Positions 10,993 to 18,364 of a stretch of DNA of 64,000 nucleotides are shown piece by piece. Position 1 is the stretch's first letter. Each line of letters starts with the position of its first letter. The notes under the pieces were generated by a model that made no database searches, was not told where the DNA came from, and saw nothing but the letters and a program-made list of their open reading frames with translations. The position numbers were made by a program, and so were the translations under genes. The stretch lies in contig CBDBPS010000001.1 in assembly GCA_965208885.1 (NCBI GenBank), positions 297,445 to 361,444 of the forward strand, read 5' to 3'. The DNA is from Dehalococcoidia bacterium. Lineage in GTDB: Bacteria > Chloroflexota > Dehalococcoidia > UBA2979.

Positions 10993-11059
10993 CTCCCGAC
11001 TGCATCGGAAGCTCAATGCCCGCCCCCTCCGGCACCACCGGAGGGGGCGGGTCGCTTAA

Positions 11060-11310
11060 CCGCGGACTCCTCCTCTGATCCCCTCGCACCCATCTACCCG
11101 GGGAGAGGGGGCCGAACCGGCGAGGCGCGAGGGCCTGCTGATCCCCTCGCCCCCCAACGGGGGGAGAGGGCTAGGGTGAGGGGGGCTCCCCCGTCGCCGA
11201 CGCATCGAGGAGGCGGAACCCCCTCACCCCAACCCTCTCCCTCGAGCGAGGGAGAGGGAGAGGGAGAGGGACCGGATCGCCGAGACGCGAGGGCCTGCTG
11301 GTCTCCTACG
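11060..11310. repeat. Cluster of G/C-rich palindromic repeats (REP/MITE-like) in the ltp-acd intergenic region
   Basis: Three copies of cgagggcctgctg(a/g)tc. Two copies of ctgatcccctcgc...ggggagaggg imperfect inverted repeats. A perfect 12-bp palindrome ccctctccctcg-agc-cgagggagaggg is followed by (gaggga)n. Confidence 0.55.
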
Positions 11311-11430
11311 CACCGGAAGGCTCCCGCATTCCCCACGAAGCCCTCGAGGTGCGTATGCTGCGCCGTGCGAACACCGATCGAGGCGCTGGCCGGGCGAGGC
11401 ATCGTCGGGCCTGCAGCAGAGGAGACACAC

Positions 11431-12651
<1,221 letters not shown>

Positions 12652-12679
12652 CCTCGACCCCAACGAGGACTCGATGAGC

Positions 12680-12702
12680 GAGGGGCGGCTCTGCCGCCCC
12701 TC
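12680..12702 (+). terminator. Perfect 9-bp stem hairpin 29 nt after the ACAD paralog 3 stop
   Basis: gaggggcgg-ctctg-ccgcccctc. Confidence 0.4.
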
Positions 12703-12744
12703 GCCGTCTCCCCAGCACGGGACTGCGCGATGGCAACGCGACCG

Positions 12745-12850
12745 GCCGGCTCGTCCACACGTCCGATGTCGACGGGAGATCCCGCGCTCGGCGCTTCGAC
12801 GCGCTGAACGTCGGCGACCGCTTCGACAGCCGACATCGCCCGCAGTCTCT
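12745..12850 (+). pseudogene. Decayed fragment of the repeat module found twice in the downstream 753-aa protein
   Basis: Translates to LVHTSDVDGRSRARRFDALNVGDRFDS, which matches LLVHTADVDGTSHSATFDSVRAGDRFEW, and shows nucleotide-level similarity to 14437..14520. It has no start codon and is truncated by a stop. Confidence 0.4.
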
Positions 12851-13019
12851 TCGAGCGCCCCAACCCGCCGTGAGCATAGCTAGCCCGGAGACACGCACCG
12901 TACGATGACTCGCATGGTGCCAGGGGACCGCGGCCGACCGCGCCAGTTCGCCGTCCCGACAACAGTGTGCGAGGGGCGGCAGAGCCGCCATTCGCCATCT
13001 CCCCGGCCCGGACAGCCAC

Positions 13020-15281
13020 ATGCGTAACGCCGTCTACGCCGCGATCTCGATGGTCGTCGCGACCGTGGCGGTGGTGCTCGCGCTGCGCCAGGATGGCGAG
13101 CCCTCCCCCAGCACCGTGGTGACGACGGCCACCACGACCAGCGCACCCGACCCACGGCCCTCGATCCCGACGAGCACCTCGACGCCGGCTCGGCGGGCGA
13201 CGGCCGCGCCGTCCGCTACCCCGACGGCACCACCTCCCGCGACACCCACGCCGCCATCGCCCGGCATCCTCACGCTGACTCCATCGTCGGGCGTGGCGGT
13301 CCCCACAGCTACGCCCACCGCGTCCGGAGCACCATCGATCCCCTACGGGCGCATCGACGTCGTCGGGGAGACCTCGACGCCCGGCAGCTACACCTTCCTC
13401 ATGCCCACCGACGACACGACTCGCGCCGTCATGACGTACGAGGAACTGCGCACCGCTTCGACGGCCGCTCGGTTCAACGTCGTCGACGCCGACGGCGCCT
13501 CGCGTGCGGAGCGGTTCGATGCGATCACCGTCGGCGACCTGTTTGAATGGCGTCAGGCCGAGGACTGCTGGACGCGCTACGAGGTGACCTCGACGCCCAC
13601 ACCTGAGGCAGGCGCCGCGACGAGGGAGTTCGGCGTGCGCTGGATGACCTACGCATTCACCGGCTGCGGCGGACCCATTCAGGCCGACGCCGACGCGACA
13701 CTGACGTTCGGGCCTCTCCCGGACCTCGGCAACCCGAGCCTGACCTACCCCATTCGGCACGGACCGTGGCAGCTCGTGCCGGAGGACTGGAGCGGAGCCA
13801 TCGAGGCCGTGGAGCGTGGCCATCCGCCGTGGCGGTCCGACCGGAACCCGCTCCCCACGACGACGCTGTTCAAGGCCCGCCAGATGACCTACTGGCGTGA
13901 TCCGGTGGTGCCGCTGGGCTGGACGTTGCAGCAGGCGGAGCGCAGATCGGCCTCGCCCTACTGGTGGGGGTACCAGGCCACCTACGGGACCACGACGGGA
14001 CTGTCCGCGTTCACGGTGAGCGCGTCGACAGCGTTCCTGAGTGGCGACCTCACGCCGATGCAGTGCGCCACTGTCTGCTACGAGACGCGCGTCATCGCGG
14101 GGCGACCGGCACGCGTCGCGTACACCCCTCCCGGCCCATTCGTCCCGAGCGTCACCCTCGCGACCGTGTGGGTCTACGACGCGGAGTACGAGGCCGAGTA
14201 CGTCGTCCGCGAGACCGAGCACCGGTTCTTCGGCGGACGCATCCGCGAGGCCATCGAGGTGGCGCGCAGCCTCTTCCAGCCGACGCTCCAGCGGCCCGGC
14301 GTCGTGCGCTACGGCCTCGTCGATACATCGGGCGCGGCCGACGAGCCCGGTAGCTATGCGCTTATGTCCGGCACGGACACCGCGGCGGCCGCCGTCGCCA
14401 CCTTTGAGGAGCTGCGCGACGGCTCCGCAGCGGCACTGCTGGTCCACACCGCAGACGTCGACGGCACCTCGCACAGCGCGACGTTCGACTCGGTGCGGGC
14501 CGGCGACCGCTTCGAGTGGCGGCGAGCGGACGACTGCTGGGTGCGATACCGCGTCACGGACGTGCTGCCCGATCCTGCCGGCGCCTCACCTCGCAAGCTG
14601 TTCGGCGTGGAGTGGGAAACGCACGCCTTCACCGGCTGCTACGGCGAGATGCCGACGAATGCGTACACCACATTCGACTTCAACCCGCTGCCGGACCTCG
14701 GCGGGACCAGCCTGGCGGCGCCGGTGGTGCATGGGCCGTGGCAGCTCGTGCCCGAGGGCTGGGATGGTGTCCTCGGAATCAGGTCGAGCGACGAGGGCTC
14801 TCCCGGTCAGTCGCACGACTCGGTACGAGCGGGCTCGAGCGACCTCGCCGCGGCCCGGGCGGGGCCAAACTGGCGAGCACCGACGCTCCCCTCGGACTGG
14901 GTGTTCGCGGGTTCGTTCAGCGGCCCGCTCACCAGCACGACCTCGGGTTACTGCGCATCCTGGAACAACCCCGGCGCGAGCCGGGCCGTGGAGATCTGCG
15001 GAGCGTCAGGCACCTCGGCGTACGCGGCCCTCGACGCATCCTGGGACGACGGCGCGGGGGTTCGCGAGTTCCGCATCATCGGCGACCGCCCGGCGCTGGC
15101 GACGTACAGCCCTCCCGGGCCCGGCCACTCCGAGGACTTCCTGATCGAGGTATCGGTCTACGATGCCGCCACGAACACTGCGTACACCATCGTCGGGCAC
15201 GACCCCACGCTCTCGGGCAGCAACGTCGACGCAATGATCGAGATCGCCGGGAGCCTCTTCGAGCCTCCGAACCTGCCATGA
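13020..15281 (+). CDS. Membrane-anchored secreted protein with a Pro/Thr-rich linker and two copies of an uncharacterised module of about 140 aa
   Basis: N-terminal TM helix, a low-complexity TTATTTSAPDP...PTPPSP linker, and internal repeats at about 13380..13790 and 14350..14765 sharing GDxFEWR..DCWxRY.VT, AFTGCxG and PLPDLG...HGPWQLVPExW. Confidence 0.65.
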   Translation: MRNAVYAAISMVVATVAVVLALRQDGEPSPSTVVTTATTTSAPDPRPSIPTSTSTPARRATAAPSATPTAPPPATPTPPSPGILTLTPSSGVAVPTATPTASGAPSIPYGRIDVVGETSTPGSYTFLMPTDDTTRAVMTYEELRTASTAARFNVVDADGASRAERFDAITVGDLFEWRQAEDCWTRYEVTSTPTPEAGAATREFGVRWMTYAFTGCGGPIQADADATLTFGPLPDLGNPSLTYPIRHGPWQLVPEDWSGAIEAVERGHPPWRSDRNPLPTTTLFKARQMTYWRDPVVPLGWTLQQAERRSASPYWWGYQATYGTTTGLSAFTVSASTAFLSGDLTPMQCATVCYETRVIAGRPARVAYTPPGPFVPSVTLATVWVYDAEYEAEYVVRETEHRFFGGRIREAIEVARSLFQPTLQRPGVVRYGLVDTSGAADEPGSYALMSGTDTAAAAVATFEELRDGSAAALLVHTADVDGTSHSATFDSVRAGDRFEWRRADDCWVRYRVTDVLPDPAGASPRKLFGVEWETHAFTGCYGEMPTNAYTTFDFNPLPDLGGTSLAAPVVHGPWQLVPEGWDGVLGIRSSDEGSPGQSHDSVRAGSSDLAAARAGPNWRAPTLPSDWVFAGSFSGPLTSTTSGYCASWNNPGASRAVEICGASGTSAYAALDASWDDGAGVREFRIIGDRPALATYSPPGPGHSEDFLIEVSVYDAATNTAYTIVGHDPTLSGSNVDAMIEIAGSLFEPPNLP

Positions 15282-15438
15282 GCCGACGGGGTAGCCCCAG
15301 GGCCGGATGGGTGGGCGGATCGGGTGCCTCGGATCACTCGATGACGCCCCCCGCAACCCGGCGGTGCGGCCCATCTCGCCACCCCGACCGCTCACGCTGG
15401 ACGAGTGCAGCGGGCCCGCTCACGAAGGGTGGTTGGTC

Positions 15439-17010
15439 TCAGGGACTCAGATCGTGCTCGGCGGTCGGGGTCATCCGCTCCGTCGTACCGCCGATGCGAA
15501 GGTGCGCGATCCCCTCCTGAGCGTCGAACAAGGAGTTCGAGTTCAGCATTGCGCGGCCCTCGTCATCGTCGTACGGGTAGTACGTGCGCAACCTCACGGG
15601 CGGGACGCCGTCGGCAAGGGGGGCGCTGATGGTCACGTACCACTCCGGCGTATCGATGGGGCGAGTGGGAAGGCCGTAGAGCTCGAGCGTCGAATATGAG
15701 ATTGCGTTGATCGCTCCCGCACCGTCGATGAGGGGGAACTTCAAAGATCCGATCCAGGTCGTCTCATTCGTGTCGCGGTTCGTGATCCAGACGCTGTACC
15801 ACTCTCCGTCGGCCTCCAGGCCGTCAGGTGCGATCCTCGCGTGATACCTCCCTGCACCCCAATCGTAGGCGCGCCGGACACCGATGAAGTCGCCTTCATA
15901 CCCCGCCGACTGTGACCATCCGTCCGGGGCGACCCGTGCATTACCGAGGTCCCGCGTGTCCCACCTGGAGAAGATCACACCCTTGACGCGCGGAGCTCCA
16001 GCATGGCTGATGGCGGTCTGGAAGCCGAAATAGAACGTGACATCGGAGATTCTCCCGTTCAACAGCATGAGGTAGAAGCCATTGCGAGGTGAGAAGTCGT
16101 AAACGTTGTTATGGACAGTGAAATCGACGGTCATCTCCCTGATCGGGTCCAGCTCGCGATCCCAGTACCACTGGACCGAGGCGGCATGGACGGGCGGCCT
16201 AATCTGCTCGTACAGGTCGTCGCGGCCAGATATGCGCGCGAGCGTGGTCACGCGGGCAGCCTTCGAATCGGGGCTCCTGCCTTCGTTGTTGATGGCCCTG
16301 AGCGTGTACACGTACTGGACACTGTCGAGCGTGCCGCTGTCGAAGTACTGTGTCTCGGCGCTCCCCGTCTGCACGACATACGCTGCGGCGATCTGCACGT
16401 CGAACGCTCGCACGAGCTCATAGCTGACGATGGTGTCGTCCGCCGGGTCGTCCCACCGCAGCATCACGCCGCGGGGGGTCGCGACCGCGGTCACGCCCGT
16501 GGGTGCGAGCGGCGGCGCGATCACCCTCACCCTCACCGTGCGGCTCCACGGCCCGTTCCGGATCGAGTCCGCGTCCGCCGCGTCCCCATGGCGCGCCCGG
16601 ACACGCACCTTGTAGATGGCGCCGGCATCGAGGCCAGTCACGATGTGCGAAGTCAGGGTCGGATACGCGTTACTCCCAATGTCGGACGGCGCGGGCCAGT
16701 CCTCATCTGCCCTCGCCCAGGTCAAGTGGTAGTCCGCCGGCGCGTACTCCGCAGCGTTCCAGTTGACGCGCATCAGGCCGCGAACGGGGCTCGTCAGCCT
16801 CAGCTGGTCGACCTCCCCGACGGGGGCCTCGGCCGGTGGAGGAGTAAGGGTCTGCGTCGGACTCGCTGCAACCTCGGTGTTGGAGTTCTGGGTGGCCAGG
16901 GCCAGATCCGCCTCGGCCGCCGGCGAAGGGCCCGGCTCATCGGAGCACGCGGCCAGGACCACGGCAGCGACCGCGACGAGCACGGCCAACCAGCGTGCGA
17001 CCCTCCTCAC
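15439..17010 (-). CDS. Lipoprotein with two fibronectin type III-like domains and an uncharacterised C-terminal domain
   Basis: Signal peptide plus lipobox (VLAAC). FN3-like segments (LTWARADEDW...YKVRVRA and SYELVRA...YVYTLRAINNEG). About 250 aa at the C-terminus is unassigned. Confidence 0.65.
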   Translation of the reverse strand: MRRVARWLAVLVAVAAVVLAACSDEPGPSPAAEADLALATQNSNTEVAASPTQTLTPPPAEAPVGEVDQLRLTSPVRGLMRVNWNAAEYAPADYHLTWARADEDWPAPSDIGSNAYPTLTSHIVTGLDAGAIYKVRVRARHGDAADADSIRNGPWSRTVRVRVIAPPLAPTGVTAVATPRGVMLRWDDPADDTIVSYELVRAFDVQIAAAYVVQTGSAETQYFDSGTLDSVQYVYTLRAINNEGRSPDSKAARVTTLARISGRDDLYEQIRPPVHAASVQWYWDRELDPIREMTVDFTVHNNVYDFSPRNGFYLMLLNGRISDVTFYFGFQTAISHAGAPRVKGVIFSRWDTRDLGNARVAPDGWSQSAGYEGDFIGVRRAYDWGAGRYHARIAPDGLEADGEWYSVWITNRDTNETTWIGSLKFPLIDGAGAINAISYSTLELYGLPTRPIDTPEWYVTISAPLADGVPPVRLRTYYPYDDDEGRAMLNSNSLFDAQEGIAHLRIGGTTERMTPTAEHDLSP

Positions 17011-17407: not shown

Positions 17408-18364
17408 ATGTCCCCCGTCACCATCCCCGACCTCCCCATCGCCGCCGATCAGGCCTGGCTCTTCCCCGGCCAGGGCGCCCAGCACGTCGGCATGGGCAAG
17501 GACCTCCATGACGAGATCCCCGCCGCCCGCGCCGTCTTCGAGGCGGCCGATGAGGCACTCGGCTTCTCGCTCTCCAGGCTCTGCTTCGAGGGTCCCGAGG
17601 ACGAGCTGACGCGCACCGTGAACACGCAGCCCGCGCTCGTCGCGCACGGCATCGCCGCACTCGTCGCGGCCATCGACGCCGGCACGGTCACGAGCCGCCC
17701 GGCGGTCGTCGCGGGACACTCGCTCGGCGAGTACGCGGCGCTAATCGCGGCGGGCGCCGTGAGCTTCGAGGACGGTATCCGCCTCGTGCGGCGTCGCGGG
17801 GAGCTCATGCAGGAGGCGTGCGACGCCGAACCAGGCACGATGGCCGCGGTGCTCGGCCTCGAGCGCGGTCAGGTCGAAGAGATCTGTGCGGCAAACGGCG
17901 CAGCCGTCTGCAACGAGAATGCGCCGGGTAACGTCAGCATTGGCGGGACCGTCGCGGCCGTCGAGGCATCGACAGCGGCGGCCGAGGAGGCCGGCGCATC
18001 GCGTATCGTCCCGCTCGCCGTCGCCGGCGCGTTCCACACCCCACTCATGCAGAGCGCGCAGGACGGCATGGCGAGCGAGCTCGCCAACGCGGCGTTCTCC
18101 GACCCCGGCATCCCGGTGGTCTCGAACGTGACGGGGCAGAACCTCACCTCGGCCGGCGAGCTGGCCGGCGAGCTGACCTCGCAGATCACCAGCCCGGTGC
18201 TCTGGGTCGACGGCGTGCGGGCGATGCTCGCGGCGGGCGTGACCTCGTTCACCGAGTTCGGGCCGGGACGCGTGCTGACCGGCGCGCTACGCCGCACCGA
18301 ACGCTCCGCCGAGGGGCGCAACGTCGCGACGGCCGCGGACGCCCGCGGCGAAGAAGCCGAGTAG
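17408..18364 (+). CDS. fabD: Malonyl CoA-ACP transacylase
   Basis: GHSLGEYAAL active-site motif and FabD length. Confidence 0.9.
   Translation: MSPVTIPDLPIAADQAWLFPGQGAQHVGMGKDLHDEIPAARAVFEAADEALGFSLSRLCFEGPEDELTRTVNTQPALVAHGIAALVAAIDAGTVTSRPAVVAGHSLGEYAALIAAGAVSFEDGIRLVRRRGELMQEACDAEPGTMAAVLGLERGQVEEICAANGAAVCNENAPGNVSIGGTVAAVEASTAAAEEAGASRIVPLAVAGAFHTPLMQSAQDGMASELANAAFSDPGIPVVSNVTGQNLTSAGELAGELTSQITSPVLWVDGVRAMLAAGVTSFTEFGPGRVLTGALRRTERSAEGRNVATAADARGEEAE

Follow-up and report, generated by a model that had tools for sequence, protein, structure and literature searches.

The window, that is the whole stretch of 64,000 nucleotides that was analysed, stems from a Chloroflexota (Dehalococcoidia-type) bacterium and encodes a surface protein with two copies of an undescribed module of about 320 residues. 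The gene of this 753-aa protein lies between an acyl-CoA dehydrogenase gene and a FabD-type malonyl-CoA:ACP transacylase gene. Upstream of it, two short coding fragments of a lost paralog, an intergenic spacer and two copies of a leader sequence were found (Table 1).

Table 1. Features of the locus (positions are those of the window, if not indicated otherwise)
Feature	Position	Strand	Basis
Acyl-CoA dehydrogenase gene, upstream anchor	11431-12651	+	92% aa identity to the L002 gene with Pfam Acyl-CoA_dh_N/M/1; stop codon ends at 12651
Leader copy 1: GC-rich hairpin (stem 12678-12704), GCCGTCTCCCC, then ATG (12730-12732) of the lost paralog	12675-12732	+	direct repeat; fold; relatives
Relic fragment 1: part of the lost paralog's unit 2 (N-terminal subdomain), GRLVHTSDVDGRSRARRFDALNVGDRFD	12723-12826	+	frame 2; blastn and family HMM
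Relic fragment 2: last 13 codons of the lost paralog, DIARSLFERPNPP, and stop codon	12831-12873	+	frame 3; matches the 3′ end of the gene, 15239-15283
Spacer, orthologous to the paralog-to-gene spacer	12874-12965	+	alignment with L002, L006 and L007
Leader copy 2: weakened hairpin (12969-12995) and start region of the live gene	12966-13022	+	direct and inverted repeats
Live gene, 753 aa	13020-15281	+	ORF; start ATG at 13020; full-length homologs at 63-86% identity
Signal-anchor helix	aa ~6-22 of the 753-aa protein	+	N-terminal hydrophobic helix in the ORF translation
Pro/Thr/Ala-rich linker	aa ~27-108 of the 753-aa protein	+	between the anchor helix and the two units
Unit 1	13344-14309 (aa 109-430)	+	self-alignment; N-terminal subdomain is module 1 of the earlier note
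Unit 2	14310-15278 (aa 431-753)	+	self-alignment; N-terminal subdomain is module 2 of the earlier note; modelled with AlphaFold
FabD-type malonyl-CoA:ACP transacylase gene, downstream anchor	17408-18364	+	93-99% aa identity to PF00698 genes in L001, L002, L004, L005 and L006

The first relic fragment was aligned by blastn with nucleotides 1393-1496 of the downstream gene (14412-14515 of the window) with 74.5% identity over 106 nt (E 2e-11), and its frame-2 translation was matched by the family HMM (E 2.5e-11). A repeat search linked the part from 12795 to 12826 to both units of the gene, and in two-unit relatives the fragment always aligned to residues ~474-499. The second fragment had been missed in the earlier note. 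It is 79-80% identical to the 3′-terminal 43 nt of the gene, including the stop codon, is in a different frame than the first fragment, and is collinear with the 3′ ends and stop codons of the paralogs of the loci L002, L006 and L007. Thus, it was verified that a frame-disrupted remnant with similarity to unit 2, as described in the earlier note, is present upstream of the gene, that its nucleotide similarity to the modules is above chance, and that it is not part of a real upstream gene, as the dehydrogenase gene ends before it. The view that the remnant is a decayed third module was not borne out. The start codon, a piece of unit 2, and the gene end with its stop codon are retained in gene order, and therefore a whole two-unit gene must be considered. 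About 145 nt of about 2,300 nt are left, and homology, a disrupted frame and the loss of most of the length characterize the relic as a pseudogene. It has thus largely been shown that the relic is a true pseudogene and the remnant of a tandem paralog. In every relative, the fragments resemble the paralog about as much as the gene, and pieces of 26 aa and 43 nt are too short for an assignment to either clade. Therefore, the orthology of the relic to the upstream paralog is based on its position and on the collinear spacer.

The comparison with related loci yielded two different arrangements. In L002, L006 and L007 the order is dehydrogenase, paralog, gene and fabD, and an intact paralog of about 766 aa is present at the position of the relic. 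In L001, L004 and L005 the order is dehydrogenase, gene and fabD, with a single leader and no paralog, and the gaps have a length of about 80 nt. In the two-gene loci, the region 12831-13031 of the window has a collinear counterpart that runs from the 3′ end of the paralog with its stop codon through the spacer to the start of the gene. The spacer region yielded a blastn match of 186 nt (E 2e-12) to positions 7825-8000 of L002, and the spacer contains a conserved block, CCGTACGATG..GCATG, at 12898-12916. A remnant of the original duplication was searched for by comparing 12874-13019 with the region after the stop codon of the gene, but no similarity was found. The paralog and gene proteins are 48-52% identical, and orthologs share 63-86% identity. 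At the DNA level the relic is 74-80% identical to the gene (20-25% divergence), while the orthologs of the window and L001 are 86.8% identical (13% divergence). Because the divergence between relic and gene exceeds that between the orthologs of the window and L001, the duplication is old, in contrast to the recent decay. The earlier proposal of a recent duplication and decay thus holds for the decay, but not for the duplication, as the two proteins share only about 50% of their residues.

The direct repeats around the relic are real, but they are longer than the 35 bp originally reported. The repeat search revealed 46 nt with 80% identity (12675-12720 versus 12966-13011). Each repeat contains a GC-rich palindrome, which has five matches in the 64 kb versus 0.81 expected from shuffled sequences, and four of the five are located at these two sites. 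The RNA fold of copy 1 has a predicted energy of -46.8 kcal/mol (z -4.6), and the z value of copy 2 is -1.06. A strong GC stem of 12 bp directly follows the stop codon of the dehydrogenase gene; it has no T-run, and a scan with a terminator consensus found no hit. Terminators of high-GC bacteria often lack a U-tract. The leader is located directly after the dehydrogenase stop codon in L001, L002, L004, L005 and L007, and one copy is present per paralog, 20-30 nt before the start codon. The repeats had been interpreted as a mark of module duplication and decay. Instead, they represent a 5′ leader that precedes each paralog and comprises a terminator-like hairpin and the start region. The leader of L001, the closest relative, is chimeric, its 5′ part resembling copy 1 and its 3′ part resembling copy 2, and such a structure would be expected after the repeats had recombined.

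The surviving gene has dN/dS values of 0.21 and 0.38, and therefore it is live and under purifying selection. It evolves faster than the neighbouring genes, and its product is a fairly fast-evolving and in all probability functional protein. The N-terminal helix and the 39% identity of the two halves (320 aa, E 1e-70) confirmed that the gene encodes a secreted membrane-anchored protein with an internal duplication. The duplication had been described as two modules of 140 aa; it is real, but the size of the module is about 322 aa, and it comprises two subdomains. The previously delimited regions (13380-13790 and 14350-14765) cover only the well-conserved N-terminal beta-barrel halves. The sequence motifs reported to be shared, i.e., GDxFEWR..DCWxRY.VT, AFTGCxG and PLPDLG..HGPWQLVPE, as well as two conserved cysteines, were indeed present in both units. 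The first 60 residues of the protein are devoid of cysteine, and thus it has no lipobox, while a lipobox-like motif is present in 45 of 120 relatives and signal peptides in others. The protein is therefore predicted to be helix-anchored and not to be a lipoprotein. It is probably tethered outside the membrane by the N-terminal helix and a Pro/Thr-rich stalk, on which the two modules would be displayed.

The module of about 322 aa matched no family in Pfam, NCBIfam, PHROGs or among the PDB sequences, and single-sequence as well as profile searches of the PDB by sequence yielded only low-complexity noise. This agrees with the earlier statement that the module is not recognizable as a known domain; a well-described Pfam domain was looked for and was absent. 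Unit boundaries were mapped in 120 relatives, which contain one to four units per protein, and there are several copies per genome. Nearly all relatives are from metagenome-assembled genomes of Dehalococcoidia/Chloroflexota, and several of the bins have names that match those of studies on sponges or corals. A census of representatives (clusters at 50% identity) yielded at most 13,221 matches to the family profile at E<=1e-3, at most 5,902 at E<=1e-10, and at most 1,015 at E<=1e-30; these numbers are upper bounds only, because the profile also contained linker and other-domain columns and matches of the fn3/LRR type inflate the counts. In the N-terminal subdomain, charged and aromatic residues form an invariant cluster (R36, D49, E69, W70, R79), and two cysteines (C76 and C110) are likewise invariant and probably form a disulfide. 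Cys110 is conserved in 99% and His46 in 91% of the units; unit 1 of the window protein and its subfamily has Asn in place of His46. The many invariant charged residues together with the cysteine and the histidine would also fit an enzyme.

In the relatives the module is combined with LRR, InlB B-repeat, fn3, SH3_3, RCC1, GEVED and GerE domains, and never with an enzyme. In most multidomain relatives it is the last domain, following arrays of LRR, B-repeats or fn3. Some relatives have a cytoplasmic LuxR-type HTH, followed by a transmembrane segment, a linker and the module. Among 76 family loci no conserved neighbourhood was found that would hint at a pathway, and the recurrent neighbour clusters turned out to be antisense ORFs of the family itself. 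In addition, a small number of unrelated genes recur near family loci, i.e., those for another B-repeat/fn3 surface protein, an alpha/beta hydrolase, a ketoacyl synthase and a DUF3179 protein.

Structure prediction with AlphaFold yielded confident models of unit 2 (pLDDT 81) and of the N-terminal subdomain (pLDDT 85, pTM 0.78). In the models, a compact beta-barrel N-terminal subdomain is followed by a beta-rich second subdomain. Foldseek searches with both models revealed no significant PDB fold, and therefore, in addition to a family match, a structural counterpart of the module was lacking in the PDB. In the BFVD, 15 matches with E<=1e-3 were found (best E 2.7e-6, probability up to 1.00), and all of them are predicted phage tail-fibre or collagen-repeat proteins. 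The TM-scores were 0.26-0.31 over the whole unit, mostly with very large rmsd values, and a few matches aligned about 130-146 columns at 3.6-5.9 Å rmsd. Most of the BFVD alignments may be driven by coil regions.

Binding is favoured over catalysis, because the partner domains are never enzymes, no curated family matches the module, HTH-TM-module architectures exist, and the only structural matches are of the phage type. We infer that the module is an extracytoplasmic binding or sensing module and not an enzyme. It might bind an external ligand, e.g., host or environmental polymers or another component of the cell surface. The window protein could thus be a surface recognition or adhesion device. 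In relatives the module is combined with LRR, InlB B-repeats or fn3, and in others it may form the external sensor part of membrane-bound LuxR-type regulators. With regard to the history of the locus, it has largely been shown that an ancestral hairpin leader and two-unit gene were duplicated in tandem between the dehydrogenase gene and fabD, and both genes are still present in some Dehalococcoidia-type lineages. In the window, the upstream copy was reduced by two internal deletions of about 1.4 kb and about 0.7 kb plus a frameshift. What is left of it is the ATG, a stretch of unit 2 of about 100 nt, and the final 13 codons plus stop codon, followed by the downstream spacer. In three other relatives the upstream copy seems to have been cleanly lost, with one leader kept. 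Taken together, the explanation that is probably correct is that the relic is a deleted tandem paralog bracketed by leaders, and that the live gene encodes surface binding or recognition modules.

Four other explanations were weighed against this one. The module could be a domain for the attachment to the cell envelope (cell wall or S-layer), similar to GW/SH3 or SLH modules. Its place at the end of most multidomain relatives is that of the anchoring modules in internalin-like proteins. However, the window protein and many relatives have their own N-terminal membrane anchor or lipobox, in the LuxR-type HTH-TM-module proteins it is located where a sensor domain is usually situated, and in a few relatives (P0103, P0108 and P0112) it is located N-terminal to RCC1 or B-repeats. 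An attachment function is thus regarded as improbable, and a binding or sensing function is preferred.

A lower probability is assigned to the version of the earlier note, i.e., that a single module of the downstream gene had recently been copied upstream and had then decayed, with the 35-bp repeats marking the duplication. The nucleotide similarity of the relic to unit 2 of the adjacent gene would be in accordance with such an event, and the relic sequence is no closer to the paralogs of other genomes than to the gene. Against it stand the remains of both ends of a gene in the correct order, the alignment of the spacer with the paralog-to-gene spacers of L002, L006 and L007, the intact paralog in these three relatives, and the divergence of 20-25% between relic and gene versus 13% between the window and L001. 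A single-module copy is therefore very improbable, and the loss of a whole tandem paralog is the preferred explanation of the relic.

Only slightly less credit is given to the possibility that the N-terminal subdomain is a highly diverged member of the sortase-like Cys/His transpeptidases or proteases, which would make the protein an extracellular enzyme. The window protein scored 13.9 bits (E 0.045) with PF04203, P0016 reached 22.3 bits over four units, and the class GN sortase model TIGR03784 yielded an E value of 0.14. Sortase was the most frequent Pfam family among the relatives (8 of 58 at E<=1), and a GD-x-F-x-W ... Y-x-V hairpin has a local motif resemblance. The spacing of 64 residues between the conserved His and Cys equals that between His120 and Cys184 of SrtA of Staphylococcus aureus; the SrtA sequence was confirmed with 1ija, and 38 distinct PDB sequences matched it by sequence. 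However, all scores were below the Pfam gathering threshold of 26.6 bits, and the clearly unrelated families AvrM-A (7 of 58) and ITAM (5 of 58) were similarly frequent, with comparable E values. An hhalign comparison of 163 N-terminal subdomains with SrtA gave a probability of 0.3%. No sortase was among the top 50 PDB matches of the two models in Foldseek, although the PDB contains many sortases, and the eight-stranded sortase beta-barrel was not recovered. In addition, a conserved Arg downstream of the Cys is missing, unit 1 has Asn instead of the His, and no member is fused to or encoded beside sortase substrates. Membership in the Sortase family was rejected on the basis of the sub-threshold scores, the number of matching relatives, which did not exceed that of the noise families, the hhalign result and the Foldseek searches. 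A sortase-like enzyme is highly improbable, and a non-enzymatic recognition module is the preferred reading.

The least probable explanation, that a small mobile element of the MITE/REP type gave rise to the direct repeats as its ends or target duplications, with the relic as its cargo or debris, would be in accordance with palindromic, GC-rich repeats flanking a non-coding segment and with the abundance of GC-rich palindromes in the nearby intergenic region 10993-11430, but it is opposed by the presence of only two copies in 64 kb instead of many dispersed ones, by their constant place in relatives with one copy per paralog, by the absence of a transposase, and by the extension of the repeat into the start codon and the first codons of the family genes.

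The evolutionary part of the deletion scenario is routine, being ordinary gene loss in an uncharacterised family. Nevertheless, the locus is a tidy documented case, because relatives exhibit both genes, the relic and the clean deletion, and a duplicated leader can drive the loss of a copy. The module of about 320 aa merits the definition of a family, as it is a large extracytoplasmic module with strong conservation and a probable disulfide that has no counterpart in Pfam, NCBIfam or the PDB. It recurs in combination with LRR and fn3 repeats, which studies of sponge symbionts have tied to host interaction. If it were a ligand-recognition domain, it would offer a handle on the way in which these symbionts, which are abundant and uncultured, perceive their environment or adhere to it.

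Besides the sortases, three known systems were compared with the locus and its protein. The distal domains of phage tail-fibre and collagen-triple-helix-repeat proteins in the BFVD are the sole library entries with statistically supported structural matches to the module. Such tail-fibre domains are receptor-recognition devices. However, the sequence identity is only 11-18%, no PHROG matches the module, and the targets are themselves predictions. It is tempting to speculate that the module is an undescribed recognition domain with a fold common to the distal parts of tail fibres of marine phages and to surface proteins of Dehalococcoidia that are associated with sponge or coral hosts, and that the changes in copy number (one to four units, gain and loss of tandem genes) reflect selection by hosts or phages, but this extended scenario is regarded as rather unlikely.

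Internalin-like and other multi-module surface proteins with LRR, InlB B-repeats and a terminal module are likewise secreted, lipid- or membrane-anchored, and have low-complexity stalks, and relatives of the window protein combine the module with LRR, InlB B-repeats and fn3. 'Eukaryotic-like repeat proteins' are enriched in sponge symbionts (PMC8163846). The window protein differs in that it is devoid of those repeats, and its globular content consists only of the module of about 320 aa. Fast evolution and several copies per genome are common to both groups, and a host interaction of the module is putative. The history of the locus matches the textbook pattern of birth and death of tandem paralogs, with relics and repeat-mediated deletion, and the repeats are situated at the deletion boundaries. 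The only particular feature in comparison to that pattern is that the repeats are a duplicated leader, which includes the terminator-like hairpin of the upstream gene.

Three traces of a family gene, arranged in the order of an intact gene, lie between the stop codon of the acyl-CoA dehydrogenase gene (12651) and the start of the live gene (13020; see table). The middle trace, which reads GRLVHTSDVDGRSRARRFDALNVGDRFD in frame 2, was recognized by the family HMM with an E-value of 2.5e-11, and it aligns at about residues 474-499 in every two-unit relative. The HMM match, the two different frames and the lack of any ORF connecting the three traces bore out an earlier note, in which the fragment had been taken for a relic. 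Judged by its sequence, it is a pseudogene in which two internal deletions have removed about 94% of the original length. The first (about 1.4 kb) lies between the start region and the piece of unit 2, the second (about 0.7 kb) between this piece and the 3′ end.

Features at and near the surface-protein locus (positions in the window)
Feature	Position	Strand	Remarks
Intergenic palindromes and repeats		10993-11430		5′ of the dehydrogenase gene; dense, GC-rich
Hairpin	~11018-11053		near-perfect
40-nt direct repeat	11108-11147 / 11268-11307		83%, 160 nt apart
Inverted repeats	11162-11270		GGGAGAGGG type
Antisense ORF	12648-14474	-	608 aa
Leader copy 1	12675-12720		right behind the dehydrogenase stop; 12-bp stem, z -4.6
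Relic trace 1, start codon	12730	+	surrounding leader similar to that of the live gene
Relic trace 2	12723-12826	+	74.5% over 106 nt to unit-2 DNA for LVHT.DVDG...GDRFEW, E 2e-11
Relic trace 3	12831-12873	+	frame 3, DIARSLFERPNPP and stop; 79-80% to the last 43-45 nt of the live gene, stop codon included
Spacer block	12898-12916		CCGTACGATG(5 nt)GCATG
Leader copy 2	12966-13011		z -1.1
Live gene	13020-15281	+	ORF, 753 aa
Lipoprotein gene	15439-17010	-	523 aa; between the live gene and fabD

The syntenic locus was compared across relatives by tblastn, and three states were found. In the related locus L002 the ortholog of the live gene (65% amino acid identity) has the same neighbours (thiolase-like, acyl-CoA dehydrogenase, X, FabD, FabG, NusB, ACP), with X made up of two family genes in tandem: first P0021, a paralog of 766 aa, and then the ortholog (750 aa). 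L006 and L007 likewise have both genes. L001 (86% ortholog), L004 and L005 have the downstream one alone, about 80 nt past the dehydrogenase stop, and the window is intermediate between these two states. In L002, L006 and L007, positions 12831-13031 have a collinear counterpart, which runs from the last codons and the stop of the paralog through the spacer into the start of the downstream gene; therefore, the relic occupies the position of the upstream paralog. Its coding pieces are too short to be assigned by sequence alone to the paralog or the gene clade. An alignment of the four genomes with a present or former upstream paralog revealed an invariant spacer block, which includes a TACGAT hexamer about 105-120 nt ahead of the start codon and is absent from one-gene loci; it could be a promoter or operator of the downstream gene.

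The direct repeats described in the earlier note do exist, and they extend over 46 nt with 80% identity, by eye even up to the start codons. They are, however, the duplicated leaders of two genes and not marks of a recent module duplication. One leader is present in one-gene loci and one ahead of each gene in two-gene loci, and thus the ancestral duplicated segment comprised hairpin, leader and gene. A mobile element was rejected, as the 64 kb contain no copies other than these two. In L001, the single leader follows copy 1 of the window through ...CTCGCCGTCTCCCC and then the copy 2 pattern (GACCCGGGCAGCCACGTGCGTAACGC against GGCCCGGACAGCCACATGCGTAACGC), and by this pattern it is the chimera expected of a crossover between the repeats with removal of the intervening DNA. 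Both copies contain a GC-rich palindrome. The elements of L001 and L002 equivalent to copy 1 fold equally well (z -3.4 and -3.1), and the second copies, ahead of the downstream gene, are degraded (L002: z -0.5). The hairpin has no T-run, and consensus scans yielded 0 terminators and 0 sigma-70 promoters, so that its role as a terminator or 3′ stabiliser is one that we infer.

The paralog and the gene share 48-52% identity, compared to 63-86% among orthologs. At the DNA level, divergence is 20-25% between the relic and the adjacent gene, compared to 13% between the window and L001 orthologs. The duplication is therefore old, and the relic is what remains of an old tandem paralog and not, as had been proposed, of a recently duplicated module. 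We regard this reconstruction of the locus as highly probable; as a gene loss it is ordinary. The intergenic repeats 5′ of the dehydrogenase gene are candidates for regulatory, REP-like or decayed elements. The 523-aa predicted lipoprotein has a LAAC lipobox-like N-terminus and an fn3 domain (PF00041, E 2.6e-11), and its long C-terminal part is without Pfam match. Its gene is not at that position in L001, L002, L004, L005 and L006, whereas L003 has a counterpart of 71% amino acid identity next to the ortholog of the live gene. At this locus it looks like another surface-protein insertion, and a lineage-specific one.

The live protein starts with one hydrophobic helix with Arg on both sides (MRNAVYAAISMVVATVAVVLALRQDG), followed by a Pro/Thr/Ala/Ser-rich segment up to about residue 108. 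When it was cut at residue 430, residues 109-430 and 431-753 formed a single collinear alignment (39% identity, E 1e-70), and thus the repeat comprises about 322 aa. The two 140-aa modules noticed earlier are real, with the quoted motifs and two Cys each, but they are the better-conserved N-terminal part of each unit and not the whole repeat. The dN/dS values of the live gene were 0.21 against L001 and 0.38 against L002 (amino acid identities 85.5% and 64.5%), those of fabD 0.011 and 0.09 (99.4% and 94.9%), and those of the dehydrogenase gene were intermediate (0.21, C-terminal 289 codons only, and 0.16). This indicates that the live gene is functional, evolves faster than fabD and is under far weaker purifying selection. 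Long antisense ORFs over the live gene are artefacts of 69.5% G+C, and in the locus survey those of family genes were grouped as a false "conserved neighbour".

A first search yielded 131 relatives (E<=0.001). The 120 listed have 1-4 units and sometimes separate half-units. A second scan of one genome per species gave 74 loci, almost all in Dehalococcoidia, Tepidiformaceae and other Chloroflexota MAGs, often several per genome, and no conserved gene neighbourhood was found across the loci surveyed. The contigs of L003 (JAPOOQ010000494.1), L040 (VYDD01000423.1) and L074 (JAAXGM010000142.1), of 1.9-4.2 kb, are in Gemmatimonadetes or Gammaproteobacteria bins; because all other loci are from Chloroflexota, they may be binning errors rather than lateral transfers. 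Several bins are named with the prefix APA, COS3 or IRC3, in keeping with three sponges that were sampled in PMC8163846: Aplysina aerophoba, Coscinoderma matthewsi and Ircinia ramosa.

Relatives carry signal peptides, signal anchors or lipobox-like motifs (the latter in 45/120), and these targeting signals, together with the linkers of the family, show that the module is displayed outside the cytoplasm. Its fusion partners are LRR, InlB B-repeat, fn3, SH3_3, RCC1 and GEVED, without any enzyme domain. In several relatives the module comes after a cytoplasmic LuxR/GerE HTH, from which it is separated by a transmembrane helix and then a linker. The HTH is N-terminal in P0078, P0101, P0119 and P0120, and in the sequences of P0078, P0101 and P0120 a transmembrane segment comes next, then a Pro/Thr linker and finally a single module; these four proteins look like membrane-bound one-component regulators with the module as external sensor.

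Over 163 units, R36, D49, G65, E69, W70, C76, R79, G109, C110, G142, P148, W151 and E253 are 98-100% conserved. Unit 1 of the window protein has Asn instead of His46 (91% conserved), as does unit 1 of most listed orthologs and of P0021, which points to a functional divergence of the two units in this subfamily. The two invariant Cys would form a structural disulfide, and the invariant Arg/Asp/Glu/Trp cluster on the barrel would be a ligand site. The module would recognise an external ligand. In a protein such as that of the window it would be a head for adhesion or recognition, and in the HTH regulators the sensor. We give this functional reading as a whole an even chance.

Searches of Pfam, NCBIfam, PHROGs and PDB sequences gave no family match for the window protein or its relatives, in agreement with the earlier note, in which the module was not recognised as a known domain. 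The unit is shown to be modularly reused, under purifying selection and absent from known families. We count it among the uncharacterised surface domains; it is lineage-restricted and of moderate interest. The AlphaFold2 models of unit 2 (pLDDT 81) and of its N-terminal 166 aa (pLDDT 85, pTM 0.78) are confident. They have a compact barrel of beta strands as first subdomain, and a poorly ordered linker connects it to another beta-rich subdomain, which lies between short helices. Foldseek found no PDB match below E 0.03; HerA and V/F-type ATPases come closest in shape with their small N-terminal barrels, and PsbP/LpqN/Apa-type sandwiches weakly so. Predicted viral structures gave 15 matches (E<=1e-3, best 2.7e-6). 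Almost all of these are tail-fibre or collagen-triple-helix-repeat proteins of phages, with low TM-scores and few compact alignments (3.6-5.9 A over ~130-146 columns). Sortase membership was rejected, as HMM matches were no commoner than those of unrelated families, hhalign gave 0.3%, and no sortase was among the structural matches; the likeness to sortases consists of a motif, a 64-residue His-to-Cys spacing and sub-threshold HMM matches.
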